Assembly: GCA_001821055.1 (NCBI GenBank)
Contig: MHRT01000004.1
Coordinates: 5,548-69,547, forward strand
DNA from: Candidatus Taylorbacteria bacterium RIFCSPHIGHO2_12_FULL_45_16
Lineage (GTDB): Bacteria; Patescibacteriota; Minisyncoccia; Phycocordibacterales; PALSA-1337
Direction: 5' to 3'
Length of the DNA stretch: 64,000 bases
The notes below the pieces were generated by a model. It was not told the origin of the DNA. It saw nothing but the letters and a program-made list of their open reading frames with translations, and did not search any database. This document shows positions 23,333 through 64,000 of the stretch, piece by piece. Both the position numbers and the translations under genes were made by a program. Each line of letters starts with the position of its first letter. Positions within the stretch are counted from its first letter, which is position 1.

Positions 23333-24571
23333 ATGACTACATTACCACAGACAAATATGAACACTCCCCGCCGTGTTTTGATATTCTCGTTGGTATATTA
23401 TCCGGATTTTGTTGGCGGAGCGGAAGTGGCTGTCAAAGAAGTAACCGATCGGACGTCTCCGGAAGAGATTGAATTTGACATGATAACTCTGCGTTTTGAC
23501 TCACATCTGCCCAAATTTGAGCGAGTTGGTAATGTGAATGTGCATCGAATCGGTTGGACCGCGAATCAAAAAGTCTATTCCGATTCGTTGCCGTGGCATT
23601 TGCACCTCAACAAATACGCGTACTTGCTGATTGGTTTTTGTAAAGCCGTGTCGCTGTATCGAACGCGAAAATATGACACGATTTGGTCGTTAATGGCCAC
23701 CTATAATTCCTTTGCCGCACTTTTCTTTAAACTGGTTTATCCAAAGATTCCGTTTATCCTCACTCTCCAAGACGGAGATCCTATCGCCTACCTCAAACGC
23801 CGGGCTTTGCCCTTGTATCCGATTTTCAAGATGATATTTACCCGTGCCGATCGTATCCAGGTGATTTCAAAATATCTGGCCGATTGGGCTAAAGAAATGG
23901 GAGCGAAATGTCCGATTATCGTCGTGCCGAACGCCGTTGATTATGGGCTTTTTTCTGGAAGCCTTTCCATAGGAGAAACTTCTGAGCTCAAGCGCAAGTT
24001 GGACAAAAAAGATGGGGATATTTTTCTGATTACCACTTCGCGCTTGGTTACCAAAAACGCGGTCGGGGACATCATTTCCGCCATGATATATTTGCCCAAC
24101 AATGTAAAATTACTTGTTCTTGGCCAAGGATATCAAGAGGCTGATCTCAAGGACCAAAGCGCGCGGCTAAAACTCGCCAATCAGGCGGAGGCTGAAGATA
24201 GAGTAAAGTTTCTGGGATATATTTCGCACAAAGACATGCCACCGTATCTCCACATTTCCGACATTTTTGTCAGACCGTCTCTGTCCGAAGGTTTGGGGAA
24301 TTCATTTCTGGAAGCCATGGCTGCGGGCATTCCGGTCATTGCCACGCCTGTTGGAGGAATCCCGGATTTCCTAGTGGATGGGGAGACTGGACTTTTCTGC
24401 GAAGTCAACAATCCGCATAGCATCGCCCAGAAAGTCGAGAAGCTGATCAAGGACAGGGAATCACGAGATTACATCATCAAGAATGCCCGGGAGATGGTTC
24501 TGCAAAAATATAGCTGGGAGCGAGTGGCTGGGGAGATGAGGGAGGTGCTTACAGGTCTTCAAAAGGGTTAA
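23333..24571 (+). CDS. Glycosyltransferase family 4 (GT-B, glycos_transf_1)
   Basis: 'RPSLSEGLGNSFLEAMAAGIPVIATPVGGIPDFL' is the EX7E region. Confidence 0.75.
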   Translation: MTTLPQTNMNTPRRVLIFSLVYYPDFVGGAEVAVKEVTDRTSPEEIEFDMITLRFDSHLPKFERVGNVNVHRIGWTANQKVYSDSLPWHLHLNKYAYLLIGFCKAVSLYRTRKYDTIWSLMATYNSFAALFFKLVYPKIPFILTLQDGDPIAYLKRRALPLYPIFKMIFTRADRIQVISKYLADWAKEMGAKCPIIVVPNAVDYGLFSGSLSIGETSELKRKLDKKDGDIFLITTSRLVTKNAVGDIISAMIYLPNNVKLLVLGQGYQEADLKDQSARLKLANQAEAEDRVKFLGYISHKDMPPYLHISDIFVRPSLSEGLGNSFLEAMAAGIPVIATPVGGIPDFLVDGETGLFCEVNNPHSIAQKVEKLIKDRESRDYIIKNAREMVLQKYSWERVAGEMREVLTGLQKG

Positions 24572-24622
24572 ATTTTTGGTATTTTGACTTATTCAATTTA
24601 TACGTTATGATTTTTTAAGACT

Positions 24623-25414
24623 ATGAAAGACAATTATTACAACTTCATCCTTCCGCTTGTTCGTGATTCCGGCGGCATCCTCTTGGAGTATTTTGGCACG
24701 AACATTAAAACTTCACACAAAGGTGAAGATTTAAGGGACATTGTCACTGACGCAGATATCAAAGTCAGTCGTTTCATTGAGCGGACAATCAGGGCATCAT
24801 ATCCTGATGATCAGATCTACTCGGAGGAACGGGTTGCAGGCACTAAACCAATTGACACCACTCGGGCATATTGGACCATTGATCCGATAGATGGCACGTC
24901 CAATTTTTCGAGGAACATTTCTCATTTCGCGGTTTGCATCGGATATGTCGAATCAAACCATCCATCAGTCGGCGCCATATACAATCCGATCACCAGAGAG
25001 CTTTTTAGTTTTGAACGGGGAAAGGGAGCTTTTCTGAATAGGGCAAAAATTTCGGTTCTGCCGACCAGAACACTTGCCGATGCCAATGTACTTTTGCATA
25101 TCGGCCGGCGTCCCGAGCTTGCCGAATGGGGTCTTGCCTTGCAACGCCTGCTCCTTACCTCCGCCAAGAAGAATCTTAACCTTGGTTCGTCAGCTTTGGA
25201 TATTTGTTTCGTTGCCGCCGGCCGTGCCGATGCTTCCATATATGGCACGCTGACTACGAGGGATATATCTCCGGCACTAGGAATATTGAGAGAGGCCGGA
25301 GGAGAGATTTATACCGCTGAAGGTAAGCCTGCTGAATTGAGCGACTCACCGCAGAAAGTTTTTTCGTGCGCTACATCGGAATTGTATCGAGATATAGTTG
25401 CCAAATCGAAATGA
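24623..25414 (+). CDS. Inositol monophosphatase family protein (SuhB/CysQ-like)
   Basis: 'EERVAG', 'WTIDPIDGTSNF' and 'WDICFVAAG'-like motifs. Confidence 0.75.
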   Translation: MKDNYYNFILPLVRDSGGILLEYFGTNIKTSHKGEDLRDIVTDADIKVSRFIERTIRASYPDDQIYSEERVAGTKPIDTTRAYWTIDPIDGTSNFSRNISHFAVCIGYVESNHPSVGAIYNPITRELFSFERGKGAFLNRAKISVLPTRTLADANVLLHIGRRPELAEWGLALQRLLLTSAKKNLNLGSSALDICFVAAGRADASIYGTLTTRDISPALGILREAGGEIYTAEGKPAELSDSPQKVFSCATSELYRDIVAKSK

Positions 25415-25431: not shown

Positions 25432-26535
25432 TCAGGCGGCGGCAAACTCTTGCTGTCGCTCTTTTTCTTCAGGTGATCGCAAACGATTGCGTCCGGCGAG
25501 ATATTCTGGGAGGATTTTTGGGTCTGGCTGAATGTCATTGAGGATTGCCATGAGCATGTCGTGCCAGAATGACAGCCGCAGTTTCGTCAGTTCACGCAGA
25601 TCTCCGTCGGTTTTTTCCAGGGCGGCGGCGTAGTAGTTGAGCAGATACCCGATCTTGTATGCGCGCATGAGGCGCAGGTCGAGGTATTCTTCGGCGCCGC
25701 GATTTTTGCGAATGTAGGCGAGAAGCATGGCTTCGAGCTTCGGATTGTGGATGAACATATAGTTGAGAAAGCGTGCCCACCCTTCATATTTATTGCCGAA
25801 ATGAACCGCCGAGCAGTCAAGCATATATATCGCGTGGTCGCGTACGCGGAAGTTATGGGGTACGAAGTCGGTGTGTGTCAGATAATTCGAGTAGCGCCCG
25901 AGCACCGCGACATTGGACTGGAGCATCTTGAGTGCGTCGACGAGAAACCGAGGATCGGATTTGATTTTAGCGAATGCGGTGCGTGTCTTTTCTGGGAATG
26001 TTTTGAATGATTCCAGATACTTATCAGGGCCGAATATAACGAAATTCTTCTGTATTGTCTTCAGATGCTCGAGAGTGGTGGCATGAAATGATTCTTGTGC
26101 TTCGAAGGCACGGAGAATAAGGAAAAACTGATCTTCAATCGTATGTGCCACAAAAACTTTATCTTGGGGTATATACTCGGTAATCCAGATCATGTATCCG
26201 CCCTTGGTTCCGTGGTATATCTCCACCGGGAAAAGGATGTATTCCGACGCAAACTCGATTGACATGAGCGTGTCGCGGGCGGTCTTCTCGGTGATGATTT
26301 CTTTCTGGCCATCCGGATGATTGCTGGTTTTGACGATGACTTTCATGCCGTCCTTCATTCGAGTGGCGGCTAGAACGAGCTTGTTGCGAGTCATCAGGTA
26401 TCTCTCGCCACTCAAGTGAGGCTGGTGCTCGCTGAGCTCATATCCGATTGGTTTGAGAAGGGCGGATATGGCGGAGAGTTGTGTAGCGACATATTCCTTC
26501 CATCTTTCTTCAGGTAGCGTTGATTTCATCGTCAT
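25432..26535 (-). CDS. Protein-kinase-like fold phosphotransferase (APH / choline-kinase-like)
   Basis: Catalytic-loop-like 'LTHTDFVPHNFRVRD' followed by 'MLDCS' (an H-x-D-x4-N...D arrangement). Confidence 0.45.
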   Translation of the reverse strand: MTMKSTLPEERWKEYVATQLSAISALLKPIGYELSEHQPHLSGERYLMTRNKLVLAATRMKDGMKVIVKTSNHPDGQKEIITEKTARDTLMSIEFASEYILFPVEIYHGTKGGYMIWITEYIPQDKVFVAHTIEDQFFLILRAFEAQESFHATTLEHLKTIQKNFVIFGPDKYLESFKTFPEKTRTAFAKIKSDPRFLVDALKMLQSNVAVLGRYSNYLTHTDFVPHNFRVRDHAIYMLDCSAVHFGNKYEGWARFLNYMFIHNPKLEAMLLAYIRKNRGAEEYLDLRLMRAYKIGYLLNYYAAALEKTDGDLRELTKLRLSFWHDMLMAILNDIQPDPKILPEYLAGRNRLRSPEEKERQQEFAAA

Positions 26536-26570
26536 TTTATCCTATAGTAGATGATGTCTTTTCGCAATCC

Positions 26571-27530
26571 ATGGAAACCGTACTCATAACCGGTGGTGCA
26601 GGATTCATCGGGTCTCATGTGGTCCGCAGGCTTATCGACGGCGGGTATCGTGTAGTATGTGTCGATAATTTTAACACTATATATAATCCCGCTTTCAAAG
26701 AGCAGAATGTCGCACCTTTCTTGTCTTTGAAGTCATTCCGACTTGAACGTGCCGATATTCGCGATAAAGCCGCGCTCAAGATGACCTTCGAGAAGGAGAA
26801 TCCTGCATACATTGTTCATCTCGCTGCTCTTGGCGATACGCGAAATGCTGTCGATAATCCTGGTGAGTACGTTGATGTGAATATCAACGGTACGCTCAAT
26901 TTGCTCGAACTCACGCGTGAGTACAAGGTCAAGAATATAGTCATGGCCTCGTCCTCTTCTGTCTATGGGAATACTCCTCGTTTCCCGTGGGTCGAGTCTG
27001 AAACTGCCGACACGCCCCTTTCACCGTACGGCGCGACCAAACGAGCCGCGGAATTATTCGCTTACACATACCATCACAATTTTGGCCTGAATATAACCTG
27101 CCTCCGTTTTTTCAACGCCTATGGCGAGAACAATCGACCGGGAATGGTTCCATATGTTTGGACCGAGGCTTTGCTCAAGGGTAAGGAGATTGAGATATCA
27201 GGCGATGGATCCCGCAAGCGCGACTATACATATGTTGGAGATGTGGCTGATGCGACTATTCTGGCCATGAATAAACCACTGGGCTATGAAGTATTAAATA
27301 TCGGCAATAACAAGCCGGTGTCATTGCTTGAATTGCTCGCGGTCCTCGAAAAGGCGACTGGTAAAAGTTCGACACGCCGGATGCGTCCGAGCCACTCGGC
27401 GAGCGTGGAGATAACATGCGCGGATATTTCAAAGGCGAAAAGATTGCTCGGCTGGGAGCCGAAGGTTCCCATCGAAGAAGGCATACGCCGCCTAATTGCG
27501 TGGTTTCGCGAGAACAGACTCGAAGATTGA
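26571..27530 (+). CDS. NAD-dependent sugar epimerase/dehydratase (extended SDR)
   Basis: 'VLITGGAGFIGSHVVRRL' and the catalytic 'YGATK'. About 320 aa. Confidence 0.8.
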   Translation: METVLITGGAGFIGSHVVRRLIDGGYRVVCVDNFNTIYNPAFKEQNVAPFLSLKSFRLERADIRDKAALKMTFEKENPAYIVHLAALGDTRNAVDNPGEYVDVNINGTLNLLELTREYKVKNIVMASSSSVYGNTPRFPWVESETADTPLSPYGATKRAAELFAYTYHHNFGLNITCLRFFNAYGENNRPGMVPYVWTEALLKGKEIEISGDGSRKRDYTYVGDVADATILAMNKPLGYEVLNIGNNKPVSLLELLAVLEKATGKSSTRRMRPSHSASVEITCADISKAKRLLGWEPKVPIEEGIRRLIAWFRENRLED

Positions 27531-28646
27531 GGTTAGACCTGCGAGGTGGCCTTCCCAGGAGAATTTTTCTTTCAATAACTTCGTTCCACCGTCGGTGAGT
27601 TTCTTGCAAAGCGCGGCATCGGTGAACAGACGCTCTATGGCATTTGCCAATTCAGCGTCATTCCCCGGCCGGACGAGCAGTCCGGTTTTTTCATGGTACA
27701 CGGCTTCATTTGTTCCCGATATATCAGTGGCTATGACGGGGATTTGAGCGGCGAAACTAGTCAGAACTGTGTGAGGCAGGCCTTCGTAAGTTGAATTGAG
27801 AACGTACACTGAAGATTTTTTACGGATATGCCACGTTTCGGCGCGAGAAACTTTTCCCAGAAATGACACGGAATTGTCCATGCCAAGGTTGCGGGACAGT
27901 TTTTTCAAGCTGTCAGTTTCAGGACCATCTCCAGCAATGATTGTCCGAACGTCGGGGAACTTTTTGCGAACGATAGATGTCGCTCTGATGATGCCAGCAA
28001 CGCCTTTCCAGGCGACCAGACGAGCCGTGACGGCGATCTGATGGGGGATCGGAGGGGTCGGCTCGAACGGCAGGACTTCGGTTACCTCGGCGGCATTGTA
28101 GTTCACTGTTGTACGCTCCGGCCGCACGCCGTAGGTCTTGATGAGTTCTTGGCTTAGATATGCCGATGGAGTGGTCACGCAGGCGGCCCGGCGGAGCACC
28201 CAGCCCTGGACACGCATCATCATCCGGATCTTCCAATCGCCGTCCGGGCTTATTAAAAATTCTTCCAAACGCTTTTTTGTCAGACGTCTCTGGGTGGCTC
28301 GCTCCCAAGCTTCATCGCCGACAAACTTGAGGACTAATGGCTTGCGCCGGATCATGCAGGCGAGCGCGGCCGGCAATCCGGCGGCCATGGCATTCTGAAC
28401 ATATACGAGGTCAGCCCCGTGAGACGCTTTGAGTAAGGCAAAAAAATAAAGGACAAGACGAACGAGTAGCGGCTTCTGCTTGCTCACCTGAATCAACTGT
28501 GTGCCAGGCATGGCCATGCCTACATCTGTATACGCCACGACGATTATGGAATGGCTGTCACGTAGCCGCTCACAGAGCTCTTTCGTGTATGTCGCCGGTC
28601 CGCCGATCTCCGGAAGATAGATCGGAGTTGCGATGATGACTTTCAT
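27492..28646 (-). CDS. Glycosyltransferase family 4
   Basis: 'STYEGLPHTVLTSFAAQIPVIATDISGTNEAV'. The N-terminus 'MKVIIATPIYLPEIGG' is typical GT4. Confidence 0.7.
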   Translation of the reverse strand: MKVIIATPIYLPEIGGPATYTKELCERLRDSHSIIVVAYTDVGMAMPGTQLIQVSKQKPLLVRLVLYFFALLKASHGADLVYVQNAMAAGLPAALACMIRRKPLVLKFVGDEAWERATQRRLTKKRLEEFLISPDGDWKIRMMMRVQGWVLRRAACVTTPSAYLSQELIKTYGVRPERTTVNYNAAEVTEVLPFEPTPPIPHQIAVTARLVAWKGVAGIIRATSIVRKKFPDVRTIIAGDGPETDSLKKLSRNLGMDNSVSFLGKVSRAETWHIRKKSSVYVLNSTYEGLPHTVLTSFAAQIPVIATDISGTNEAVYHEKTGLLVRPGNDAELANAIERLFTDAALCKKLTDGGTKLLKEKFSWEGHLAGLTSIFESVLAKPRN

Positions 28647-28693
28647 GCAAACAAAGTAACACAAAAAGATAAAATAGTGTACTATAAGATAGT

Positions 28694-56105: not shown

Positions 56106-56119
56106 AAGATGCTTGTATT

Positions 56120-56506
56120 CTATAGTTCTATTGAAATCTTGTCATCTTTATAGGGACCATTTTTCACTTCAACGACCTCACTGTCCTCGAGAAAATGGAC
56201 AGCCCAGATTCCATTGAGCAAAATAAAAAATTCTCCAGCATTGATGATTATATCTGTTACATGTTTCTTATCCTGTCCATAAAGTTCTATTTTTATTTTT
56301 CCTTTTTTTACGATAAGACATTCTTGCAGCGTAGTAGTCACCCTATTTTCCGGTCTATGCCCGTGAATTTTCACTTCTGTTCCCACTGGTTGCTTTAAGG
56401 TGATGATTTGAATAGACTCGCTACTGTTTGTTATAGGATGTGTGCCAGAAGAAAAACTGCTGACTTTTATACCTATTAGAATATCTTTGGAATAAAATTC
56501 TTCCAT
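56120..56506 (-). CDS. Cupin-fold protein, possibly an NDP-sugar ketoisomerase/epimerase (FdtA/WxcM-like)
   Basis: Length ~128 aa. 'KIHGHRPENRV...E' matches a cupin His/Glu arrangement. The gene lies between gmd and a GT11 gene. Confidence 0.35.
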   Translation of the reverse strand: MEEFYSKDILIGIKVSSFSSGTHPITNSSESIQIITLKQPVGTEVKIHGHRPENRVTTTLQECLIVKKGKIKIELYGQDKKHVTDIIINAGEFFILLNGIWAVHFLEDSEVVEVKNGPYKDDKISIEL

Positions 56507-57589: not shown

Positions 57590-57631
57590 AGTGCCCTATT
57601 CTAAGGTATTTTGGGGTTAAATTCAACTTTT

Positions 57632-58846
57632 TTAGAGGATTGTTGGTTTTGGAGCGGGTACGATGAATTTTCCCCCGTAGCCTTTTTCTTTAAGTTTTTT
57701 GATAAGAATCGGAGCAATAGTCCACGACAAGAGAAGGGCATACCCTGGCTGATCTTTAAAAAGATGAGATTCCTCTACGACCGGTATGTGCATTCCAGGA
57801 GTAAATTGGCCGATCTTGCGCTCACTCGTCTCGACGAGGTAACTTATAATCTGTGAGTCAATCTGACAGTAATTGAGAAGTGTGTTGCCTTTTGCGGGGG
57901 CGCCAATGCCGACAATCTTGTGACCTGCTATTTTTATATCAACGAGTATTTGTTGAAGGTTGAGTTTTGTCTTCTCTACTTCTTTTGCGAAATTGATATA
58001 TATTTTCTCATCATACAGTCCAGATCCTTTTTCTAATTCAAGGAGCTTCTCGACTGCAGATGAGATTGGATATTTTCCTCTCATGGCAGCATGGACTCGT
58101 ATGGAACCCCCATGAATAGGGATTCTTTCAGCATCAATGATCTCCATGCCAAACAATTCAAATAATGTGACGAGTGGTTTCAAAGTGTAATAACGTAAAT
58201 GTTCATGATAAATAAAATCATACTGTAGACCTTCTATCATATCGTAGGTGTAGCCAGATTCAGACACGAAAATTCCGTCGTCAGCCAGAAGTTCTTTTAC
58301 TCCATTCATAAATGAATGAAGATCGTCCACATGGGCAAATACATTTGTGGCAGTTATAATTTTTGCCTTACCATATTTTTTTGTAGCAATAATGGCAGTT
58401 TTTTCATTGAAGAAATCAACGATTGTAGATTGATTTTTTTTAATGGCGAGTCTTGTAACGCCCGAAGGATCAATACCAAGGATTTTTACATTATGAGAGA
58501 TATAGTTTTCGAGTAGGGAACCGTCATTTGATCCAATATCTACTACAAGATCTTTTTCTGTAAGTTTATACTTGGAAATTAGTTTTGAGGTAAAATCTTT
58601 GAAATGTTGTTTTAAGGTTTGGTTTGTGCCGCTATTGTAAGCATAATCTTCAGAAAAAAGAATCTTTGGATCCACTACAAAACCAAGCTGTACGAGATAG
58701 CAGTCTTTACAGAAAAAAAGATCAAGGGGATATGCAATTTCTTCTTTTTCCAATGCTTCTTTGCTCAAGAAAGCATCACTTGGTGGTTGATGACCTAGTG
58801 AAAGGAATTTGAACAGATTATTTTTTTTACAGATGAAACAAGACAT
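57632..58846 (-). CDS. Sugar C-methyltransferase-like enzyme with an N-terminal zinc ribbon (paralog of 47539..48819)
   Basis: 'CFICKKNNL...CKDCYLVQ', 'VVDIGSNDGSLL', and a C-terminal domain collinear with the paralog. Confidence 0.6.
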   Translation of the reverse strand: MSCFICKKNNLFKFLSLGHQPPSDAFLSKEALEKEEIAYPLDLFFCKDCYLVQLGFVVDPKILFSEDYAYNSGTNQTLKQHFKDFTSKLISKYKLTEKDLVVDIGSNDGSLLENYISHNVKILGIDPSGVTRLAIKKNQSTIVDFFNEKTAIIATKKYGKAKIITATNVFAHVDDLHSFMNGVKELLADDGIFVSESGYTYDMIEGLQYDFIYHEHLRYYTLKPLVTLFELFGMEIIDAERIPIHGGSIRVHAAMRGKYPISSAVEKLLELEKGSGLYDEKIYINFAKEVEKTKLNLQQILVDIKIAGHKIVGIGAPAKGNTLLNYCQIDSQIISYLVETSERKIGQFTPGMHIPVVEESHLFKDQPGYALLLSWTIAPILIKKLKEKGYGGKFIVPAPKPTIL

Positions 58847-58919
58847 AGATTTTTCAAGTTACTTTTGTGTCGCTATTTTGACTGAGAAATATCAAATTGA
58901 TAGTTATTGGTGAACATTT

Positions 58920-59945
58920 CTATTGTTTCAAATATTTTTCGACAAAACTCCTGGTCGTATACTCACGTTGTGCTCTATTGAAGGCGTTCTCGACCATTAT
59001 ACTGTATTTCGGCCAGTCATTTAGAATTGCTCTTATTTTTTCTTCAAGGTGCCCAGGTTCAAAATAAACAAACTCCTTGTCTTTCTCAAAATATCTCTCA
59101 ATTTCCCTGAATGGATCTTTTTGACACAAAAGTAGAGAGCGACAAAAAACAGCCTCAAAAATTCTGCCTTTTTGTTGTGGTACGGGATATTCTCTTTGAA
59201 AAATATAATTTCCAAATGAACTTAAAAAACTTTTTTTAGGGATATAGGCGAATGCCTTGTTACTTTCCCAGTCCTCCGTGTTTTGTATATTTGCGACATG
59301 TCGTGCGTTTGCATTTAAAAGTGTATGTACAACGGTTATTTTAGATTGCGAGGTTAATTTGAGTTTTTCCTTATAACTGATATTTTGGTCAGTAATATAT
59401 TTGTTTTTTGTCTTGGGAACATAGGACAATATTTTGCGGGCAATTTTTGTGTTTCTCCACAATTTATAGGTAAGTGTTTCTGATAAAGAGATGTACTTGT
59501 GGTTAAATTTCTTGATTGTTTTTATTGTATTTAATATATGACTCGAATGTATCCCGCCGATATAGATTACATCATAGATTTTCTCAGCTTTTGGTGGAGT
59601 ATAATCTTCATTAAAAGGGACAAAGACGTATGTACGTTTTTCATTACCCTGTTTCTTATTGAGCCATTCTGTCGTATATGGACACGCCGAGAGAATCTTA
59701 TAAAAATGCTCATCCCCATAGTCATCTCGACGAAATTTTGGATCTTTGGAGAAAAAACGATTAGGTTCCTCAAGTTCGTAATAAACAAGTTTTTTGTTTT
59801 TATATTCCTCTGCTTCCAGTGATTTGAAATTAATTCGAGCATCGATGAAAACAAAATCTTCTCCAATATTCTCAAATTTTTCGAAACCAAAAAAATTGAC
59901 AGTGTCTTCTTTTGGAAACTTTTTTGGAACCATACACATTTTCAT
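58920..59945 (-). CDS. Putative glycosyltransferase (CgeB / Glyco_trans_1_2-like C-terminal domain)
   Basis: 'QQKGRIFEAVFCRSLLLCQKD...VYFEPGHLEEKIRAIL' resembles the CgeB-family C-terminus. Confidence 0.4.
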   Translation of the reverse strand: MKMCMVPKKFPKEDTVNFFGFEKFENIGEDFVFIDARINFKSLEAEEYKNKKLVYYELEEPNRFFSKDPKFRRDDYGDEHFYKILSACPYTTEWLNKKQGNEKRTYVFVPFNEDYTPPKAEKIYDVIYIGGIHSSHILNTIKTIKKFNHKYISLSETLTYKLWRNTKIARKILSYVPKTKNKYITDQNISYKEKLKLTSQSKITVVHTLLNANARHVANIQNTEDWESNKAFAYIPKKSFLSSFGNYIFQREYPVPQQKGRIFEAVFCRSLLLCQKDPFREIERYFEKDKEFVYFEPGHLEEKIRAILNDWPKYSIMVENAFNRAQREYTTRSFVEKYLKQ

Positions 59946-60056
59946 GTAATATATAAATTTATGATTGATTTAATCCTCGATGTTTTATATCTTAGCAACT
60001 TAAACGAATTTTTGGTATTTATGGACAATTATTGTTTTTTAGTGTATAAATAACAT

Positions 60057-61859
60057 ATGTTTTCTTTTAACATTGCTCGCATTATTGAAGCATACAAATT
60101 GACGAAGCGAATGTTTGGTGGGTACAAAAAACAGATTATCCTTTTGACGATACTGGGTTTTTTTAGTGGCCTTCTAGAGGCTGTTGGGGTTAATGCGCTG
60201 ATTCCACTTTTTTCTTTTTTTGTAAAAAGTGAGGAGCGTCTTGGGGGAGATCTCATAGCTCAATTCATCAAAGATTTTTTCGCGTTTCTTCACATGCCGT
60301 TTACACTACCGACCCTACTTATTTTTATCTGTGCTCTTTTCACTGTTAAGGCTCTTCTGACACTTTATTTTAATTATATTCGTGCGGATATTCGTTTGGA
60401 ATACGAACGTACTACCATGACTTCTCTTTATAAAGAAACCCTCTATGCTAACTGGCCGTATCTTTCAAGACAGAAAATTGGTCATCTTGAGACAATAATT
60501 ATGACTAATGTCCGCCAAAGCGCGAGACTATTAGAGAGCATTGCGCGCCATGTGGGAGTCGTCACGGAACTTCTCATTTATCTGTTTGTCGCTCTTACCA
60601 TATCCAAGACTGTGACACTTCTCACTCTCGTACTTGGTGGGTTTATCTTCCTTGTTTTTAAGCCCCTATTGTATAAAGTTCGTAACATGTCCAAGGAAAC
60701 TGAAGGATTGAATAGAGAAGTGTCAAGACATATAAATGAAAGTATTGGTGGGATGAAAATAATTAAAGCGATGGGAAGTGAAGATGATTTTATACGAATC
60801 AGCAGTTTTCATTTTGATTTATACCGTAAGCTTCTTGTACGCATATCCATTATCAATAATTTCATGATTACATTCATACAACCCATAAGTGTAGTCTTCA
60901 TCTCACTCGTTGTGGCTTTTGCTTATTATAAAACATCTTACAATATCGGCGCACTTGCAGCCATCATCTATCTTATTCAGAAAATGTTCGCGCATATACA
61001 GAGTTTGCAGGCCTTTGCACAGATTGTGAGCAACGATGTGCCCTATGTGCAAGGAGTGCTGACGTATAAAGAACAAGCGGTTCGATATAATGAACGGCAG
61101 GAAAAAAATAGGAGTGACATACCATTTTCTTTTAAAGACAGTCTCTCTTTTGAGAATGTTTCATTTGCGTATGAGACAGGAGATACCATCTTAAAAGACA
61201 TTTCCTTTATTGTACCAAAAGGTGCTACGGTTGGATTGATTGGGAAATCTGGATCTGGAAAAACAACTTTTTTCGATCTCGTGCTTAGATTATTGAAACC
61301 GGATTCTGGGGTGATTAAGATAGACGGTACCAATATTCAAAGTATCGATATTTCACTTTGGAGAAGCAGAATAGCCTATGTTCCACAAGATGTCTTTCTT
61401 TTAAATGACACAATTTATAATAATATTATATTTTACGATCAAAACATAAAAAGGGAAGAGGTGGAGTATGCCACAAGACTTGCCCATCTCGAAGAGTTTG
61501 TCAGAGAATTAAAGGATGGGTATAACACTATTGTCGGTGAACGCGGGGTGCGTCTTTCTGGTGGTCAACGTCAAAGGATTGCCATTGCCCGTGCGCTTGC
61601 CCGCCGCCCTGAGATATTACTCCTTGACGAAGCCACCAGTGCTCTTGATGTAGAATCAGAAGCGTATGTTCAAGAAGCAATCAAAGAACTCAAAGGAAAA
61701 ATGACGATTTTGATTATTGCCCATCGTCTTGGGACAGTCTCGCATAGTGACACACTGGTAGTAATTGACGATGGTCACATTATTGAATCAGGAAAACCTT
61801 CGGAACTTCTTAAAGACAAAGAAACATATTATGGACGAGTCTATAATATTCAAAATTAA
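60057..61859 (+). CDS. ABC exporter, fused transmembrane and ATPase domains (MsbA/lipid- or glycan-flippase-like)
   Basis: Six TM helices. Walker A 'GKSGSGKTT', signature 'LSGGQRQRIAIARAL', Walker B 'ILLLDEATSALD'. Confidence 0.85.
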   Translation: MFSFNIARIIEAYKLTKRMFGGYKKQIILLTILGFFSGLLEAVGVNALIPLFSFFVKSEERLGGDLIAQFIKDFFAFLHMPFTLPTLLIFICALFTVKALLTLYFNYIRADIRLEYERTTMTSLYKETLYANWPYLSRQKIGHLETIIMTNVRQSARLLESIARHVGVVTELLIYLFVALTISKTVTLLTLVLGGFIFLVFKPLLYKVRNMSKETEGLNREVSRHINESIGGMKIIKAMGSEDDFIRISSFHFDLYRKLLVRISIINNFMITFIQPISVVFISLVVAFAYYKTSYNIGALAAIIYLIQKMFAHIQSLQAFAQIVSNDVPYVQGVLTYKEQAVRYNERQEKNRSDIPFSFKDSLSFENVSFAYETGDTILKDISFIVPKGATVGLIGKSGSGKTTFFDLVLRLLKPDSGVIKIDGTNIQSIDISLWRSRIAYVPQDVFLLNDTIYNNIIFYDQNIKREEVEYATRLAHLEEFVRELKDGYNTIVGERGVRLSGGQRQRIAIARALARRPEILLLDEATSALDVESEAYVQEAIKELKGKMTILIIAHRLGTVSHSDTLVVIDDGHIIESGKPSELLKDKETYYGRVYNIQN

Positions 61860-61969
61860 AATTCAGTGGTAACGATAGTGCTTTACCCACATCCGTGTTA
61901 TATTAGCGGGTACATTATTATTTTGATTGATTATAAATTATTGTTTCTGCAGGAATGATAAACCATAAT

Positions 61970-64000
61970 ATGAATCTCCAAAAAATTCTACGTTCTGTTA
62001 TCTTTACCGCGCTTTTTCTAATTCCGGTGTTTGTTCTTTTTCCGATGCCATTTTGGCCTTTCAATTTTACTAACTCGATGTTCTTCCCGTTCATTACCGG
62101 CAAGGCATTTTATTTCCGCGCCCTAGTCGAAACCGCTTTCTCGATCTGGGTCATCCTTGCTTTTCTTGATCCAAGATACCGACCGAAAATTTCACCATTG
62201 ACTATCGGCGTCACCTTATTCAGCGTGGTTGCGCTTCTCGCAGACCTGCTTGGCGTCAATCCGCTTCGTAGCATCTGGTCAAACTTTGAGCGTATGGAAG
62301 GTTGGTTGGTCGTGGTGCATCTGTGGATGTTTTATATTGTTGCCTCGCACACTTTTGGTGCCGGCGAAACCGGTCTTTCCACGCAAACGGGGAAGCGTTT
62401 ATGGCACCGCTGGTTCAATGTCTCATTGGTTGTTGCTTCGGTTGTGTCTATATACGCCCTAGCCCAGCTTTTCGGCTGGACCGCAATTCATCAAGGCAGT
62501 ACTCGTTTGGATGCCTCGCTTGGCAACGCGGCATATTTGGCAGTTTATATGTTGATGCATATAGGCATTGCTATGTATATGTTTTTTGTGGCACGAGCCG
62601 GAAAAATAGCTAATGCTGGTTTTTTGCAGTGGCTGTATCCGGTTGTGGCGATTATATTCAGTTTCATAATTCTTCAGACTCAAACCCGAGGTTCTATTAT
62701 CGGTCTTATTGGCGGAATTGTTTTGGCCTTGGCTTTGTATGCTATCTTTGGTAAAGAAGAATCCAAAAAGCGACGTTGGATTGTGACCGGCGTCATCGGG
62801 GCAATCATGATTATCAGCGTTGTATTTTGGCTGTGTCGTAACACTCAGTTTATCAAAAACATCCCGGTTTTGGATCGCATCGGCAGTATTTCACTCTCCG
62901 ACACCAAGACTCAAGCTCGTGCCTATGTCTGGCCGATGGCTCTCAAAGGCTTTGCGGAACGACCAATTCTCGGCTGGGGTCAGGAGAATTTCAATTATAT
63001 CTTTAACAAGGATTACAACCCGGAGATGTGGCGGCATGAACAATGGTTCGATCGCGCACACAATGTGTTCCTTGATTGGTTGGTGGCTTCGGGTTTTATC
63101 GGCTTGGTGGCGTACCTCGCGTTGTATGTTTTGTTGCTTATGGCGATCTGGAGGTCGGACCTCAAGATTAGGCAAAAAAGCGTCTTAGCTGGTCTGATTG
63201 CCGGATACGCTGTCCACAACATATTTGTATTTGACAACTTGGCGAGCTACGTATTCTTTTTTGCCTTGCTTGGCTTCGGCGGTTCGCTAAGACGAAATGA
63301 GGCAAGAGACAAAGGCCGAGAGAATCAATTGTCGCCAGTCTCCAAGATTGGTTGTTGGCTGGAAAACAAAACATTCAGCACGGACGCGGTGGAATATATC
63401 GTGGCCCCAATTGTCATAATTGTTCTCTTTGCTGGTATATATTTTCTGAATGTGCGTCCGATTCAGGCGAACACTCGTCTGATTTCTGCGTTGCAGTCAT
63501 GCTCTGGCAATGGGGGAACTCCGGACGCCACTCTATTCGCCAAGGCTTTGGATATAAATTCTTATATGGCCAATCAAGAGATTCACGAACAGATTCTCTC
63601 ATGTTCAGGCGGGGTGATAAACAGTCAGTTGCCAGGTTCGATAAAGCAGAATTTCTTTGAACTGGCGACACAAGCAATCGGCGCTCAAATATTGGCCACA
63701 CCGGATGATGCTCGCATATATGTTCTCGGCGGAACATTCTTGTCCGGCATCGGTCAAATAGAAGAAGCGGAAAAAATCTTGACCAAAGCGCACGAATTGA
63801 CGCCACGAAAGCCGTCAGTCACGATTCAGCTGGCCAATATTTACCTAAATAAAGGTGATTTTGAAAAAAGCTTGGGATTATTGAAAGAAGCCTACGAATT
63901 GGAGCCAAGTCATCCGGAATCTGGCAAGGCTTATTTGATCGGGCTTATCGCCTCTGGTGATGAAGCCACGGCCCGTAAGCTATTCGGTAGTGATCCTTCG
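61970..64000 (+). CDS. O-antigen ligase/polymerase-like (Wzy_C) membrane protein with C-terminal TPR repeats. It is 3'-truncated by the window end and absent from the supplied ORF track.
   Basis: Frame 2 was translated by hand from 61970 and stays open to 64000. It has 10 or more TM helices and the Wzy_C motif 'TQTRGSIIGLIGG'. The C-terminus has TPR-like 'AEKILTKAHEL...IYLNKGDFEKSLGLLKEAYELEP'. An alternative in-frame ATG lies at 61955. Confidence 0.6.
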   Translation, partial: MNLQKILRSVIFTALFLIPVFVLFPMPFWPFNFTNSMFFPFITGKAFYFRALVETAFSIWVILAFLDPRYRPKISPLTIGVTLFSVVALLADLLGVNPLRSIWSNFERMEGWLVVVHLWMFYIVASHTFGAGETGLSTQTGKRLWHRWFNVSLVVASVVSIYALAQLFGWTAIHQGSTRLDASLGNAAYLAVYMLMHIGIAMYMFFVARAGKIANAGFLQWLYPVVAIIFSFIILQTQTRGSIIGLIGGIVLALALYAIFGKEESKKRRWIVTGVIGAIMIISVVFWLCRNTQFIKNIPVLDRIGSISLSDTKTQARAYVWPMALKGFAERPILGWGQENFNYIFNKDYNPEMWRHEQWFDRAHNVFLDWLVASGFIGLVAYLALYVLLLMAIWRSDLKIRQKSVLAGLIAGYAVHNIFVFDNLASYVFFFALLGFGGSLRRNEARDKGRENQLSPVSKIGCWLENKTFSTDAVEYIVAPIVIIVLFAGIYFLNVRPIQANTRLISALQSCSGNGGTPDATLFAKALDINSYMANQEIHEQILSCSGGVINSQLPGSIKQNFFELATQAIGAQILATPDDARIYVLGGTFLSGIGQIEEAEKILTKAHELTPRKPSVTIQLANIYLNKGDFEKSLGLLKEAYELEPSHPESGKAYLIGLIASGDEATARKLFGSDPS

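Follow-up and report, generated by a model that had tools for sequence, protein, structure and literature searches.

The locus described here has its nearest known analogues among Gram-positive bacteria, in their S-layer glycan clusters. These clusters have a low GC content and encode a capping methyltransferase-glycosyltransferase fusion, an ABC exporter, an AsnB homologue, tagD, and WsfB, a Wzy_C O-oligosaccharyltransferase with TPR (PMC2943079). The window analysed here is a 64,000-nucleotide stretch of DNA from a Candidatus Taylorbacteria MAG (Paceibacteria, Candidate Phyla Radiation; GenBank record available), which has a small genome and originates from Rifle aquifer groundwater. According to the list of open reading frames and Pfam/NCBIfam scans, positions 23333-64000 of the window are occupied by a surface-glycan locus of 38 contiguous genes without gaps, and the NCBI locus tags, which start at A3C79_01930 and increase by 5 up to A3C79_02105, are compatible with this gene count. 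The locus is approximately 41 kb long, and its true end at position 64252 lies past the end of the window. Based on its sequence, the predicted function of the locus is to build, methylate, export, and attach a cell-surface glycan.

The locus encodes approximately 16 glycosyltransferases (eight GT4, four GT2, two GT11-type, one CgeB-like, and one GT-C) and seven methyltransferase domains, two of which are fused to glycosyltransferases and two of which are TylC3/TcaB9-type sugar C-methyltransferases. Among the remaining genes are Gmd, DegT, AsnB, and GtrA, together with those for three SDRs, an MsbA-type ABC exporter, and a WaaL-fold Wzy_C protein with TPR. The first-pass annotation had read the region as a surface-glycan locus making methylated, amino-, and 6-deoxy sugars from GDP-mannose, with the product exported and ligated, and this core reading is supported. 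The Pfam/NCBIfam scans did not reassign most of its glycosyltransferase calls to unrelated families. Its counts of ten GT4 and five GT2 enzymes are reduced to eight, two of them marginal, and four. The total of seven methyltransferase domains stands when the two C-methyltransferases are included, but two domains are fused to glycosyltransferases instead of three. The calls of CgeB-like, GT-C, GtrA, MsbA-like exporter, Wzy_C with TPR, Gmd, DegT, AsnB, LbH acetyltransferase, nucleotidyltransferase, and IMPase-like phosphatase were each borne out at the profile level, and the proposed strand-block boundaries at 39.7, 43.7, 46.0, 47.5, 50.0, 51.4, and 60.0 kb are correct.

The locus is positioned between conserved anchors. 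Those on the left are a DUF4015 protein and a TrwB-like ATPase; those on the right are Wzy_C-TPR, murB, and secA. The left flank is formed by a DUF4015 putative glycoside hydrolase (20161-21453, + strand; DUF4015 6e-95) and a TrwB/VirD4-like P-loop ATPase (21519-23267, + strand; TrwB_AAD_bind 1.5e-7 and TraD-type matches). In the relatives L087 and L088, these two genes likewise lie ahead of the GT4-GtrA-PMT_2-GT2/methyltransferase module; it is uncertain whether the two proteins are functional members of the glycan locus. At the right-hand end, synteny of Wzy_C-TPR, murB, and secA is shared by L002, L004, L005, L008, L009, and L082-L084, and the sugar genes upstream vary. L007 has no murB match, and there Wzy_C-TPR immediately precedes secA.

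The first gene of the locus encodes a 412-aa GT4 glycosyltransferase (23333..24571, + strand; Glycos_transf_1 2.9e-40, Glyco_transf_4 4e-12). It is followed by a 263-aa IMPase-family sugar/inositol phosphatase (24623..25414, + strand; Inositol_P 8.4e-51), which did not reach the CysQ, HisN, or SuhB NCBIfam cut-offs. A 367-aa protein (25432..26535, - strand) had no match in Pfam, NCBIfam, or PDB sequence searches. The earlier description of this protein as kinase-like is confirmed by its fold and catalytic residues, which place it among APH-fold small-molecule kinase-like proteins. Residues K69, E83, H221-x-D223-x4-N228, and D240 are conserved in a family of 122 representatives, and macrolide and aminoglycoside phosphotransferases were the top Foldseek matches (prob 1.0, TM 0.54-0.67) of its AlphaFold model (pLDDT 93.8). 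The next protein is a 336-aa extended SDR, a GalE-like NDP-sugar epimerase/dehydratase (26520..27530, + strand; Epimerase 9.5e-61), for which GalE is the best NCBIfam match with 194 bits versus a cut-off of 262. GT4 enzymes are encoded at 27492..28664 (- strand, 390 aa; Glycos_transf_1 6.7e-36), 29769..30788 (+ strand, 339 aa; Glycos_transf_1 5.6e-26), and 30807..31868 (+ strand, 353 aa; Glyco_trans_1_4 7e-16), and a marginal GT4-like enzyme at 28694..29767 (+ strand, 357 aa; Glycos_transf_1 27.1 bits versus a cut-off of 26.4). Orthologues in the relative L085 share 65% identity with the GT4-like enzyme, at the corresponding position, and 61% and 47% with the GT4 enzymes at 29769..30788 and 30807..31868, respectively.

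The genes that follow encode a GtrA-family small membrane protein with at least three hydrophobic segments, a putative polyprenyl-phosphate-sugar flippase (31865..32317, + strand; GtrA_DPMS_TM 1.4e-16; 60% identity to its L085 orthologue), and a 209-aa class I SAM methyltransferase (32326..32955, + strand; Methyltransf_23, Methyltransf_11; SAM motif I VVDIGGG). A 613-aa GT4 protein (32952..34793, + strand; Glycos_transf_1 1.1e-17, residues 184-350) carries a C-terminal class I methyltransferase domain with SAM motif I ILDIGCGVA at residue 457 and an MTS match of 8e-5 at residues 508-606. It precedes a 386-aa GT4 enzyme (34815..35975, + strand; Glycos_transf_1 2.4e-23) and a 468-aa PMT_2/ArnT-like GT-C membrane glycosyltransferase with approximately nine TM segments (35966..37372, + strand; PMT_2 6e-11, 43 bits versus a cut-off of 26; 51% identity to its L085 orthologue). 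The second fusion, of 517 aa, joins GT2 and Methyltransf_11 domains and has C-terminal TM segments (37375..38928, + strand; Glycos_transf_2 2.3e-34, Methyltransf_11 1.4e-11). Its GT2 domain is nearest to the polyprenyl-phosphate sugar synthases AglJ, PgfS, and ArnC (NCBIfam, all sub-threshold), and the fusion is conserved in Patescibacteria as a protein of about 518 aa with 56-77% identity.

The central part of the locus starts with a 259-aa Methyltransf_24/CmcI-type protein, similar to rhamnosyl O-methyltransferases (38956..39735, + strand; Methyltransf_24 6e-15, RMNT_CmcI 4e-7). Both GT11 enzymes of the first-pass annotation are retained. The divergent one, with 306 aa (39732..40652, - strand), had no Pfam or PDB match; it contains collinear GT11 motifs including HVRQSDY, shares 51% identity along its entire length with a protein of L085 bearing a Pfam GT11 match, and is labelled 'Glycosyl transferase family 11' in UniRef. 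The other is a 288-aa member of the alpha-1,2-fucosyltransferase family (55239..56105, - strand; Glyco_transf_11 4e-34). GT2 enzymes are encoded at 40701..41570 (- strand, 289 aa; Glycos_transf_2 8e-28), 42755..43660 (- strand, 301 aa; Glycos_transf_2 1.4e-13; 46% identity to an L085 GT2), and 46640..47545 (- strand, 301 aa; Glycos_transf_2 6e-15), and a marginal GT4-like enzyme at 41567..42745 (- strand, 392 aa; Glyco_trans_1_4 28.2 bits versus a cut-off of 27). A 256-aa Methyltransf_24/O-methyltransferase (43890..44660, + strand; Methyltransf_24 2.7e-15, Methyltransf_3 3e-7) precedes a 314-aa ATP-grasp ligase (44669..45613, + strand; ATPgrasp_Ter 4e-17, ATP-grasp_3 4e-13) of the PRK12767 'carbamoyl phosphate synthase-like' type, a sub-threshold match. 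A second ATP-grasp enzyme ascribed to the locus lies outside it, at 17137-18378. The proposed mini-HAD is a putative 106-aa HAD-like phosphatase (45604..45924, + strand) with the N-terminal motif MIDLDGTL (DxDGT) and HAD-family matches with E of 1e-3 to 2e-2, none above cut-off. The 186-aa hexapeptide-repeat (LbH) acetyltransferase (46005..46565, - strand; Hexapep 2e-8; WcaF, NeuD, and WbbJ-type matches sub-threshold) is overlapped by a + strand open reading frame, 45942-46616, without profile matches.

The two C-methyltransferases, which had been called TcaB9-like, both have the Methyltransf_13 and Methyltransf_14 architecture and share 44% identity. NDP-sugar C-methyltransferase 1 (47539..48819, + strand, 426 aa; Methyltransf_13 7.6e-18, Methyltransf_14 5e-42) adjoins a 368-aa DegT/DnrJ/EryC1-family PLP sugar aminotransferase (48826..49932, + strand; DegT_DnrJ_EryC1 1.3e-99; closest NCBIfam models LegC, PseC, and WecE, all sub-threshold). 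NDP-sugar 3-C-methyltransferase 2 (57632..58846, - strand, 404 aa; PDB matches TylC3 4rv9 3e-81, KijD1 5t64 9e-68, TcaB9 3ndi 1e-63) adjoins Gmd, a small cupin-like protein, and the GT11 enzyme. Gmd, a 360-aa GDP-mannose 4,6-dehydratase (56507..57589, - strand; GDP_Man_Dehyd 3.6e-137), passed the TIGR01472 equivalog with 511 bits versus a cut-off of 415. The protein called a cupin (56120..56506, - strand, 128 aa) had no Pfam or PDB match and a sub-threshold WbuC-family match (4.6e-6, 26.5 bits versus a cut-off of 42); it also adjoins Gmd in L082, with 75% identity. Between the two C-methyltransferases, a 257-aa orphan open reading frame with a GC content of 0.514 (50001..50774, - strand) had no match in Pfam, NCBIfam, or PDB and matched only itself among 5.8 billion proteins; it contains a partial Nudix-box-like motif, QELHEELGV, and its UniRef label is 'Nudix hydrolase domain-containing protein'. 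A 170-aa HIGH-motif nucleotidyltransferase (50898..51410, + strand; CTP_transf_like 2.7e-14) resembles RfaE domain II/TagD (rfaE_dom_II 89 bits versus a cut-off of 181). Two extended SDRs, NDP-sugar epimerases/reductases/dehydratases, are encoded at 51429..52412 (- strand, 327 aa in the source-contig call; Epimerase 4e-39; generic top PDB matches 8vr2, UXS, and RmlB-like) and 52405..53406 (- strand, 333 aa; Epimerase 2.6e-40). Neither scored above the cut-off of any NCBIfam model; the Fcl model covers only the C-terminal half of the latter (63 bits versus a cut-off of 500). They are followed by a 594-aa AsnB-type glutamine amidotransferase (53453..55237, - strand; Asn_synthase 2e-87, GATase_7; TIGR01536 499 bits versus a cut-off of 267). 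A 341-aa CgeB-like GT-B glycosyltransferase is encoded at 58920..59945 (- strand; Glyco_trans_1_2 31.4 bits versus a cut-off of 25).

The right end of the locus encodes a 600-aa fused TMD-NBD ABC exporter (60057..61859, + strand; ABC_membrane, ABC_tran), which matches the HepA, MsbA, and PglK models, none above the specific-family cut-off. The last protein, with 760 aa, is a WaaL-fold Wzy_C membrane ligase/oligosaccharyltransferase with a C-terminal TPR domain (61970..64000, to 64252, + strand; Wzy_C 4.5e-24, 85 bits versus a cut-off of 32). Its gene runs 252 bases beyond the window, and the full length was taken from the source contig L001. The protein has 11-12 predicted TM segments and one more ahead of the TPR domain. 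Its AlphaFold model (pLDDT 85.3) is most similar in Foldseek to WaaL (7tpg_B, E 1.2e-4, TM 0.59). Wzy_C proteins can act as ligases, O-oligosaccharyltransferases, or polymerases, and for the one encoded here sequence and fold do not discriminate between these roles. Its invariant residues include R240, R317, H364, G375, and G378; the candidate loop Arg/Arg/His correspond to residues reported as common to WaaL and PglL (PMC3643930).

The whole is best explained, with good probability, as a composite cell-envelope glycan locus with the following pathway. The predicted product of Gmd is GDP-4-keto-6-deoxymannose. Together with the two C-methyltransferases, the DegT aminotransferase, the three SDRs, the acetyltransferase, the AsnB-type amidotransferase, the ATP-grasp ligase, the APH-fold kinase, the IMPase-like phosphatase, and the nucleotidyltransferase, Gmd would provide sugars of the 6-deoxy, C-methyl-branched, amino/acylamino, and amidated types. 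Profile and PDB searches gave no assignable reaction for the SDRs, and the GDP-mannose supply genes ManB/ManC and a recognisable GDP-fucose synthase are absent. Approximately 14 soluble GT-A/GT-B transferases may assemble the glycan on polyprenyl phosphate at the cytoplasmic face. The locus and window contain no initiating phosphoglycosyl transferase of the WbaP/PglC or WecA type; the sole Glycos_transf_4 protein is MraY. Five O-/N-methyltransferase domains, two of them transferase-fused, would decorate or cap the glycan. The MsbA/PglK-like ABC exporter would flip the finished lipid-linked glycan, and the Wzy_C protein, with its TPR domain probably outside after the 13th transmembrane helix, would pass this glycan as a single block onto an acceptor on the far side of the membrane. 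Since lipid A is lacking in these bacteria, a surface protein (for example, an S-layer protein or pilin) is the most likely acceptor, in line with WsfB and PglL; one Parcubacterium has been reported without lipid A/LPS genes yet with 20 glycosyltransferases (PMC5220378). None of the genes next to the locus encodes an S-layer protein, a pilin, or another obvious acceptor. The GT2-methyltransferase fusion, GtrA, and GT-C may constitute a parallel Gtr/PMT-like three-component system, which would add single sugars from polyprenyl-phosphate sugar donors at the outer face.

The genes of the locus probably do not form a single pathway, because the left module occurs alone in L087 and the right part is a variable cassette anchored on Wzy_C-TPR, murB, and secA. 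In L087, another Taylorbacteria genome, the left module is located beside the DUF4015/TrwB-like ATPase flank and is followed by housekeeping genes. GtrA, PMT_2, and the GT2-methyltransferase fusion are found together in four other loci. The locus appears to join a GT4/GtrA/GT-C/GT2-methyltransferase module and a variable Gmd/C-methyltransferase/exporter cassette, separable units that are contiguous by happenstance in this genome. In the relative L083, Wzm, a 423-aa Wzt, and a CmcI methyltransferase stand where the MsbA-type exporter would be, and this swap argues that a completed glycan is exported.

The GC content is 0.485 across 23.3-31.9 kb and approximately 0.39 across 31.9-61.9 kb, with abrupt shifts at both ends. 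The compositional check suggested by the first-pass annotation thus shows a mosaic. However, the glycan regions of relatives are also low in GC, and therefore the low GC content is a persistent trait of the locus and does not prove that it was acquired recently. Size and methylation capacity had been regarded as striking for a reduced genome, but they are not exceptional within the lineage, since the locus of a Hainich groundwater relative is comparable. It contains approximately 38-40 kb at the equivalent site and encodes 14 or more glycosyltransferases as well as 5-6 methyltransferases; its GT2-methyltransferase gene and Wzy_C-TPR are 25.7 kb apart, versus 24.6 kb in the window. Clusters of a similar kind occupy the equivalent chromosomal site in related bacteria, and the locus is typical of its lineage.

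The surface-glycan locus comprises 38 contiguous genes between positions 23333 and 64000 of the window, almost without intergenic space, as determined from the ORF list and Pfam scans and refined by a low-stringency Pfam rescan and NCBIfam scans. Many stop and start codons of neighbouring genes overlap, and the coding strand switches 11 times. The last gene passes the window edge; on the source contig it encodes 760 amino acids and ends at the window-equivalent position 64252, and the locus therefore extends over about 41 kb. The NCBI locus tags A3C79_01930 to A3C79_02105 agree with the count of 38 genes, which UniRef names by domain and NCBI calls "hypothetical protein". Eight genes are of the GT4 type, two of them (28694-29767 and 41567-42745) barely above the Pfam cut-offs; four are GT2 genes according to Pfam, one encodes a CgeB-like glycosyltransferase (Glyco_trans_1_2), and one a GT-C membrane transferase (PMT_2). 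The locus has seven methyltransferase domains. Three are free class I or CmcI-type enzymes (starting at 32326, 38956, and 43890), two are fused to glycosyltransferases (GT4 at 32952-34793 and GT2 at 37375-38928, both with a visible SAM motif I), and two are C-methyltransferases, the first at 47539-48819 beside DegT and the second at 57632-58846 beside Gmd. The first-pass annotation had counted ten GT4 genes, five GT2 genes, and three glycosyltransferase-methyltransferase fusions, numbers that the profile scans reduce to eight, four, and two. Further genes recognized at the profile level encode a DegT aminotransferase (1e-99), an AsnB-type amidotransferase (TIGR01536, score 499 against a cut-off of 267), three extended SDRs, a hexapeptide-repeat acetyltransferase, a HIGH-motif nucleotidyltransferase, an IMPase-family phosphatase, and one ATP-grasp enzyme. 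According to Pfam, there is only one exporter, with ABC_membrane and ABC_tran domains in one fused protein, and only one ligase. Two ATP-grasp enzymes had been announced for the locus; one is there, and the other is probably the stand-alone ATP-grasp protein of 413 amino acids encoded outside it, at 17137-18378. The ORF at 50001-50774 is not an ATP-grasp protein, and no second enzyme of this type was found inside the locus.

The GT11 gene at 55239-56105 matches Glyco_transf_11 with 4e-34 (118.6 bits against a gathering cut-off of 23.9). A GT11-like protein (39732-40652) has no Pfam or PDB match. It has three collinear GT11 motifs in common with the true GT11, carries the UniRef name GT11, and is 51% identical over its full length to a protein with a Pfam GT11 match that occupies the same position in locus L085 of a Hainich groundwater relative. 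The kinase-like protein (25432-26535), likewise without a family-profile match, belongs to a family of 122 representatives that keeps Lys69, Glu83, His221-x-Asp223-x4-Asn228, and Asp240. Its profile finds only a marginal match in the PDB, APH(2'') with an E-value of 0.06, and its AlphaFold model (pLDDT 93.8) resembles macrolide and aminoglycoside phosphotransferases and methylthioribose kinase in a Foldseek search (probability 1.0, TM 0.54-0.67). With the bilobal kinase fold of the model and the set of Lys, Glu, HxDxxxxN, and Asp, the predicted protein is of the APH/choline-kinase-like type. Possible roles are the salvage of sugars by anomeric phosphorylation and chain termination in the manner of WbdD. 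A sub-threshold WbuC-family match is the sole basis for the cupin (56120-56506), and the mini-HAD is recognized by weak HAD matches and a DxDGT motif. The ORF at 50001-50774 is an orphan that finds only itself among 5.8 billion proteins, with no homologue beyond its own population; it contains a partial Nudix-like motif and is named a Nudix-domain protein by UniRef. PDB sequence searches with the GT11-like protein, the kinase-like protein, the orphan, and the cupin returned nothing useful.

The sugar-nucleotide genes include Gmd, which matches the TIGR01472 equivalog model with 511.4 bits against a cut-off of 415. Both C-methyltransferases consist of Methyltransf_13 (the N-terminal Zn-binding domain), a SAM domain, and a C-terminal Methyltransf_14 domain; two CxxC pairs are visible, and the two proteins are 44% identical to each other. 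Their solved relatives are the sugar 3-C-methyltransferases TylC3, KijD1, and TcaB9 (3e-81 to 1e-63), and C-methyltransferase 2 aligns end to end with the PDB entries 4rv9 (TylC3, 3e-81) and 3ndi (TcaB9, 1e-63). By domain organization and full-length similarity, both are predicted NDP-sugar C-3 methyltransferases of the TylC3/TcaB9 type. With the model of the GDP-fucose synthase Fcl/WcaG, whose cut-off is 500, the SDRs of the locus reach 63-78 bits at best, and the two tandem SDRs match this model over its C-terminal half only. The tandem SDRs could not be assigned to the Fcl, Rmd, UXS, or RmlB type, since they stay below the cut-off of every model and have only generic neighbours in the PDB. 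Because no Fcl is present, L-fucose is not implied, and the 6-deoxyhexose need not be this sugar. No ManB or ManC genes were found in the locus or the window. The gene order suggests that Gmd, C-methyltransferase 2, the cupin, and SDRs act in one branch, which would produce a GDP-6-deoxy-C-methyl-hexose for transfer by the adjacent GT11. In a second branch, C-methyltransferase 1 and DegT would produce a C-methyl amino sugar.

The GT2-methyltransferase fusion is encoded together with a GtrA-family protein (GtrA_DPMS_TM, 61 bits) and the GT-C transferase (PMT_2, 43 bits), both of which exceed their cut-offs. The fusion protein has about 518 amino acids and is 56-77% identical across Patescibacteria. 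The nearest models of its GT2 domain are the polyprenyl-phosphate sugar synthases AglJ, PgfS, and ArnC, all sub-threshold. A cysteine-rich segment, CCQFCKADF...YQCQEHG, is located between its two domains at approximately residues 242-262, and hydrophobic segments flank the methyltransferase domain on both sides. The trio is kept in four loci from the genomes of relatives (L085, L086, L087, and L088). From the domain content, we propose that the trio may constitute a Gtr/Pmt-like three-component system for glycosylation at the outer face of the membrane.

The last gene of the locus encodes a Wzy_C domain (85.4 bits against a Pfam cut-off of 31.7) followed by TPR repeats. The protein has 11-12 hydrophobic segments, and the AlphaFold model of the part encoded within the window has a pLDDT of 85.3. 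Its top Foldseek match in the PDB is the ligase WaaL (7tpg_B, E 1.2e-4, target-normalised TM 0.59 over 477 columns). WaaL was recovered only by the fold search; in sequence-only profile searches of the PDB, the membrane-domain profile did not match WaaL, and the full alignment was swamped by TPR proteins. Residues R240, R317, and H364 are invariant in 22-32 homologues, with a spacing that resembles that of WaaL. The stretch H364-S-x9-G375-x-x-G378 fits H[NSQ]x9Gxx[GTY], which we take to be the WaaL motif. Residues R215, R288, and H338, which are essential in Escherichia coli WaaL, are conserved in PglL (PMC3643930). Arg240, Arg317, and His364 plausibly correspond to this Arg/Arg/His set. The WaaL-like core is followed by an extra helix (471-511), and the TPR domain should therefore be located on the outer side of the membrane. 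More than 3,600 proteins belong to the family at E <= 1e-20. Leaving aside a 557-aa fragment identical to the query (P0001), the best 120 of these are 51-77% identical to the query over the aligned region. Nearly all of the named homologues among the matches listed belong to Patescibacteria.

The glycan would be built by the soluble transferases with polyprenyl phosphate as the carrier and would be modified or capped by the O-methyltransferases; the MsbA/HepA/PglK-like exporter would then flip the completed product. Export of a completed glycan is supported by locus L083 of the Hainich relative, which has Wzm and a long Wzt instead of this exporter. The final transfer would be carried out by the Wzy_C-TPR protein. 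For the acceptor, a surface protein is the likeliest candidate, with a chance that we put at just short of even. A Parcubacterium genome was reported to have no lipid A/LPS genes, and the TPR-bearing Wzy_C enzymes WsfB and PglL are described as protein O-oligosaccharyltransferases (PMC5220378, PMC2943079). By analogy, the C-terminal TPR and the absence of LPS in a related lineage favour a protein acceptor. Pfam detects no Bac_transf or WecA-type initiating phosphoglycosyl transferase among the 38 genes. The sole candidate for the initiating enzyme in the window, the upstream Glycos_transf_4 protein, was rejected, as it is MraY (192.3 bits with TIGR00445, whose cut-off is 192.05). No acceptor gene adjoins the ligase, and no S-layer gene is recognisable within the window.

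The locus is bordered by conserved genes on both sides. On the source contig, the Wzy_C-TPR gene is followed by murB, a gene without assignment, secA, an AI-2E transporter, and obg, and the synteny of Wzy_C-TPR, murB, and secA is retained in eight loci of relatives (L002, L004, L005, L008, L009, L082, L083, and L084). Another locus, L007, has no murB match at this point, and secA immediately follows Wzy_C-TPR. The sugar genes directly upstream of this right anchor differ among L004, L005, L007, L008, and L082-L084 and include Gmd, AsnB, SDRs, C-methyltransferase, GT11, PMT_2, and Nudix genes. On the left, the order DUF4015, TrwB/VirD4-like ATPase, GT4 genes, GtrA, PMT_2, and GT2-methyltransferase fusion is also present in L087, from another Taylorbacteria genome, and in L088. 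The left flank, which is conserved in further Paceibacteria and formed by DUF4015 (a putative glycoside hydrolase) and the TrwB/VirD4/HerA-like ATPase, occupies 20161-23267 of the window, 1-3346 of L087, and 1-386 of L088. L087 and L088 encode a secreted protein with LTD and PKD domains, a possible glycoprotein target, between the ATPase and the GT4 genes; the protein is absent at this position in the window. The glycan genes of L087 end after about 10 kb and are followed by housekeeping genes, with no right cassette or Wzy_C-TPR nearby, and thus the left module of GT4s, GtrA, GT-C, and GT2-methyltransferase can stand alone.

In the Hainich relative, L085 and L083 are positioned on one contig, 4.2 kb apart. 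L085 contains, in order, CTP_transf, three GT4s, GtrA, a methyltransferase, three GT4s, PMT_2, GT2-methyltransferase, Methyltransf_21, GT11, an unassigned gene, GT2, DUF268, GT2, a methyltransferase, DegT, a TPP enzyme, and an SDR. After the gap, L083 continues with GT4, AsnB, GT11, GT2, a CmcI methyltransferase, Wzt, Wzm, DegT, SDR, Gmd, Wzy_C-TPR, murB, and secA. An ABC-2 Wzm and a 423-aa Wzt beside the CmcI-type methyltransferase (L083 4255-6355) replace the MsbA-type exporter, an exchange of exporters within an otherwise similar locus. The distance from GT2-methyltransferase to Wzy_C-TPR is 25.7 kb in the Hainich relative and 24.6 kb in the window. Positional orthologues of the two are 35-71% identical; in the comparison with L085, the identities are 71% for the GT2-methyltransferase, 65% for GT4c, 61% for GT4d, 60% for GtrA, and 51% each for GT-C and the GT11-like protein. 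The whole locus of the relative spans approximately 38-40 kb and encodes at least 14 glycosyltransferases and 5-6 methyltransferases. The first-pass annotation called the size and methylation capacity striking for a reduced genome. Since the Hainich relative has a comparable locus, both are properties of the lineage, not of this genome alone. The premise of a reduced genome is reasonable and derives from general knowledge of CPR genomes, which are about 1 Mb in size. The proteins of the window are identical to those of four Candidatus Taylorbacteria MAGs from the Rifle aquifer, which represent one population. In GTDB with one genome per species, the relatives of its SecA belong to Patescibacteria/Paceibacteria, with identities of up to 77%, and the upstream genes DUF5671, MurC, MurD, MraY, and pyruvate kinase agree with the Patescibacteria placement.

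The housekeeping genes have a mean GC content of 0.476. The GC content is 0.485 between 23.3 and 31.9 kb and about 0.39 between 31.9 and 61.9 kb, and it changes abruptly at 31.87 and 61.9 kb. The first-pass annotation had suggested that compositional breaks would indicate mosaic acquisition. The breaks exist; however, low GC is common to the glycan regions of relatives. As the conserved positional orthologues and the glycan regions of relatives are also low in GC, the composition is a standing feature of the locus, and low GC was rejected as proof of recent acquisition because relatives have the same low GC and gene order. Low GC is also known for O-antigen and S-layer glycan clusters (PMC2943079). 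The tetranucleotide profiles of 31.9-45.9 kb and 50.9-61.9 kb are nearly identical (r = 0.97), and the intervening stretch of 45.9-50.8 kb is close to both of its neighbours (r ~0.9). Two genes embedded in the region of ~0.39 GC are richer, the LbH acetyltransferase (46005-46565, 0.506) and the orphan ORF (0.514). The block of AsnB, GT11, cupin, Gmd, C-methyltransferase, CgeB-like, and ABC genes (53453-61859) is 75-92% identical at the protein level to positions 219-9322 of L082, whereas the adjoining Wzy_C, MurB, and SecA are 66, 61, and 75% identical. These values suggest that the AsnB-to-ABC cassette may have been laterally exchanged or may be under unusually strong constraint.

A complete diversity-generating retroelement is located upstream of the glycan locus (13123-16551). 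Its variable repeat (13858-13992) forms the 3' end of the ORF 13123-14010 (+), and its template repeat is at 14975-15109. The repeats are 135 nt long and 84% identical, with 20 of the 22 mismatches at template adenines. A bAvd-like ORF (15116-15460, -, 3.7e-9) and a reverse transcriptase (15481-16551, RVT_1 2.3e-20) follow, and an IS200-type Y1 transposase (14188-14646, 3.8e-33) is positioned between the two repeats. The target protein of the retroelement has no family match. Farther upstream, a 231-aa protein (10044-10739) beside MraY and MurC matches only arginyltransferase (ATE_C) models, and weakly. ARAGORN predicts a tRNA-Met (CAT) at 12017-12089. The Rfam scan of the whole window reports no match at gathering thresholds because this tRNA scores 26.7 bits with the tRNA model, below the gathering score of 29.

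The locus is an ordinary kind of cluster, of the polyprenol-linked surface-glycan type known from S-layer glycans and O-antigens, and its sequence is already public. The S-layer glycan (slg) clusters of Geobacillus stearothermophilus NRS 2004/3a and Paenibacillus alvei CCM 2051T are likewise tightly packed, low-GC clusters of glycosyltransferase and sugar-nucleotide genes in bacteria without LPS (PMC2943079). They share with the locus methyltransferases fused to glycosyltransferase domains (WsaE adds a 2-O-methyl cap), ABC export of the completed lipid-linked glycan followed by a Wzy_C O-oligosaccharyltransferase (P. alvei WsfB has a C-terminal TPR), an AsnB homologue (wsfA), and a TagD-like cytidylyltransferase (PMC2943079). 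Two methyltransferase fusions, the combination of Wzy_C and TPR, and a GC content of ~0.39 against 0.476 in housekeeping genes are all found here; in contrast, Pfam detects no ABC-2 Wzm/Wzt exporter in the locus. The exporter is instead a fused half-transporter of the MsbA/PglK type, although the relative's locus L083 uses Wzm/Wzt. Unlike slg clusters, the locus has neither a WsaP/WbaP-type initiating enzyme nor an adjacent S-layer gene, its sugars would derive from GDP-mannose and carry C-methyl branches instead of being dTDP-rhamnose, and it includes a Gtr-like module. It is also two to three times larger.

In E. coli O8/O9a, an ABC-transporter-dependent O-antigen is capped by the kinase-methyltransferase WbdD, exported by Wzm/Wzt, and ligated by WaaL. 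Capping of E. coli-type ABC-dependent O-antigens is also mentioned in PMC2943079. Completion of the polymer in the cytoplasm, capping enzymes (here the kinase-fold protein and many methyltransferases), ABC export, and a WaaL-fold ligase would be common to both systems. However, the Taylorbacteria lineage has no lipid A-core acceptor, the APH-fold kinase is encoded as a protein of its own, with no methyltransferase attached, and this genome has no Wzt carbohydrate-binding module. In the en bloc protein O-glycosylation systems of Campylobacter (PglK), Neisseria (PglL), and Pseudomonas (PilO), the lipid-linked oligosaccharide is flipped in its complete form by a fused ABC half-transporter; an enzyme of the Wzy_C family, in which Arg/Arg/His are conserved, then attaches it to Ser/Thr of surface proteins (PMC3643930). 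Here, in contrast, the exporter scores 240 against the 1000-bit cut-off of the PglK model, no target gene adjoins the ligase, and the glycan machinery is far larger. The actinobacterial Ppm1/Pmt system glycosylates outside the cytoplasm in a comparable manner to Gtr-type systems. GtrA/GtrB/GtrC and CsbB/GtcA/YfhO are such three-component extracytoplasmic systems (PMC8035078), in which a GT2 polyprenyl-phosphate sugar synthase, a small GtrA-family membrane protein, and a GT-C are encoded together, as are their predicted counterparts in the locus. The GT2 of the locus differs in its fused SAM methyltransferase domain and cysteine-rich segment. We know of no fused methyltransferase in characterised GtrB, CsbB, or Ppm1 enzymes. 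For the Gmd and C-methyltransferase 2 branch, the closest precedent is the proposed pathway for virenose, a 6-deoxy-3-C-methyl-hexose, of the Coxiella burnetii O-antigen (PMC3539893). There, an NDP-hexose 4,6-dehydratase, a TylC3/TcaB9-type C-3 methyltransferase, an epimerase, and a reductase would act in succession to provide a branched 6-deoxyhexose for a surface polysaccharide, and Gmd and C-methyltransferase are adjacent in the locus. In contrast to the virenose pathway and to the antibiotic-sugar enzymes TylC3, TcaB9, and KijD1, two paralogous C-methyltransferases are present here, one of them paired with an aminotransferase, and the characterised enzymes act on dTDP-sugars.

A tentative proposal, less likely than not, is that Wzy_C-TPR, GT2-methyltransferase, GtrA, and GT-C are parts of one system for an envelope glycoconjugate that is inherited vertically throughout Paceibacteria; its product would be the major surface polymer so far missing for these bacteria, which have no LPS. 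Variable cassettes would add C-methyl-branched 6-deoxy and amino sugars, and the route may be new in that a polyprenyl-phosphate sugar is methylated by the fused domain before it is flipped and transferred outside. The first-pass annotation treated the genes as one pathway for a single heavily methylated heteropolysaccharide that is exported and ligated. Contiguous, tightly packed genes with many overlapping stop and start codons, a single exporter and a single ligase, and the nearly unchanged spacing of the contiguous halves in the Hainich relative speak for such unity of all 38 genes. We nevertheless consider it unlikely: L087 has the left module without the right cassette or Wzy_C-TPR nearby, the locus has 11 strand switches and two compositional compartments, and it contains a self-sufficient Gtr-like three-component system, a kind that in known cases decorates a separately made polymer. 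The AsnB-to-ABC block, with 75-92% identity to L082 against 61-75% for the flanking Wzy_C, MurB, and SecA, further suggests that it moves as its own unit. The closeness of this block to L082 is also what would be expected of a recently acquired mosaic island, made of hypervariable exchanged cassettes for phage evasion or host recognition and without long-term functional unity. The sharp GC steps, the two GC-rich genes in the low-GC part, the variation of exporter type and sugar genes among relatives, and the IS200 transposase and retroelement 7-10 kb upstream point the same way. Against an island of this kind, which we judge improbable, many low-GC genes (GT2-methyltransferase, GtrA, GT-C, and GT11-like) are positional orthologues in a relative with a 62%-identical Wzy_C, the glycan regions of relatives are low in GC as well, the flanks and scaffold order are conserved, and the locus has no integrase, tRNA-adjacent attachment site, or bounding repeats.

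The proposed glycoconjugate need not be a glycoprotein. The glycan could be lipid-anchored, or Wzy_C-TPR could be a Wzy-type polymerase, which would make the product a lipoglycan, a capsule, or a polymer resembling teichoic acid. WaaL, the top fold match, is indeed a lipid A-core ligase, polymerases too fall under Pfam Wzy_C, phosphate-containing polymers would suit the kinase and phosphatase genes and the TagD/RfaE-like nucleotidyltransferase, and the kept adjacency of murB could indicate a cell-wall-linked product. This interpretation is made rather doubtful by the Parcubacterium genome without lipid A/LPS genes (PMC5220378) and by the C-terminal TPR, described on Wzy_C enzymes for the protein O-oligosaccharyltransferases WsfB and PglL (PMC2943079). 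Moreover, Pfam finds neither a Wzx flippase nor a Wzz regulator with Wzy_C in the locus, as a Wzy-dependent pathway would need, and there is no LCP-family ligase or TagF-type polymerase in the locus.

The surfaces of CPR bacteria probably serve to attach them to host cells. How the CPR cell envelope is structured and assembled has been described as unclear, and the abundance of glycosyltransferases in Parcubacteria has been noted before (PMC5220378). In the literature on glycan loci of CPR/Patescibacteria, we found general remarks on abundant glycosyltransferases and no description of this type of locus or its anchors. With its conserved flanks, low GC, and swapping of cassettes and exporter, the locus behaves, by analogy, like an O-antigen hotspot, as would be expected if the surface of these episymbionts is under diversifying selection. 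The locus and its anchors provide concrete candidates, open to experiment, for the principal glycoconjugate on the surface of Paceibacteria, namely a WaaL-fold ligase with TPR in an organism without LPS, the conserved trio of GT2-methyltransferase, GtrA, and GT-C, and the repeated occurrence of Gmd together with a C-methyltransferase, from which rare branched sugars are predicted.
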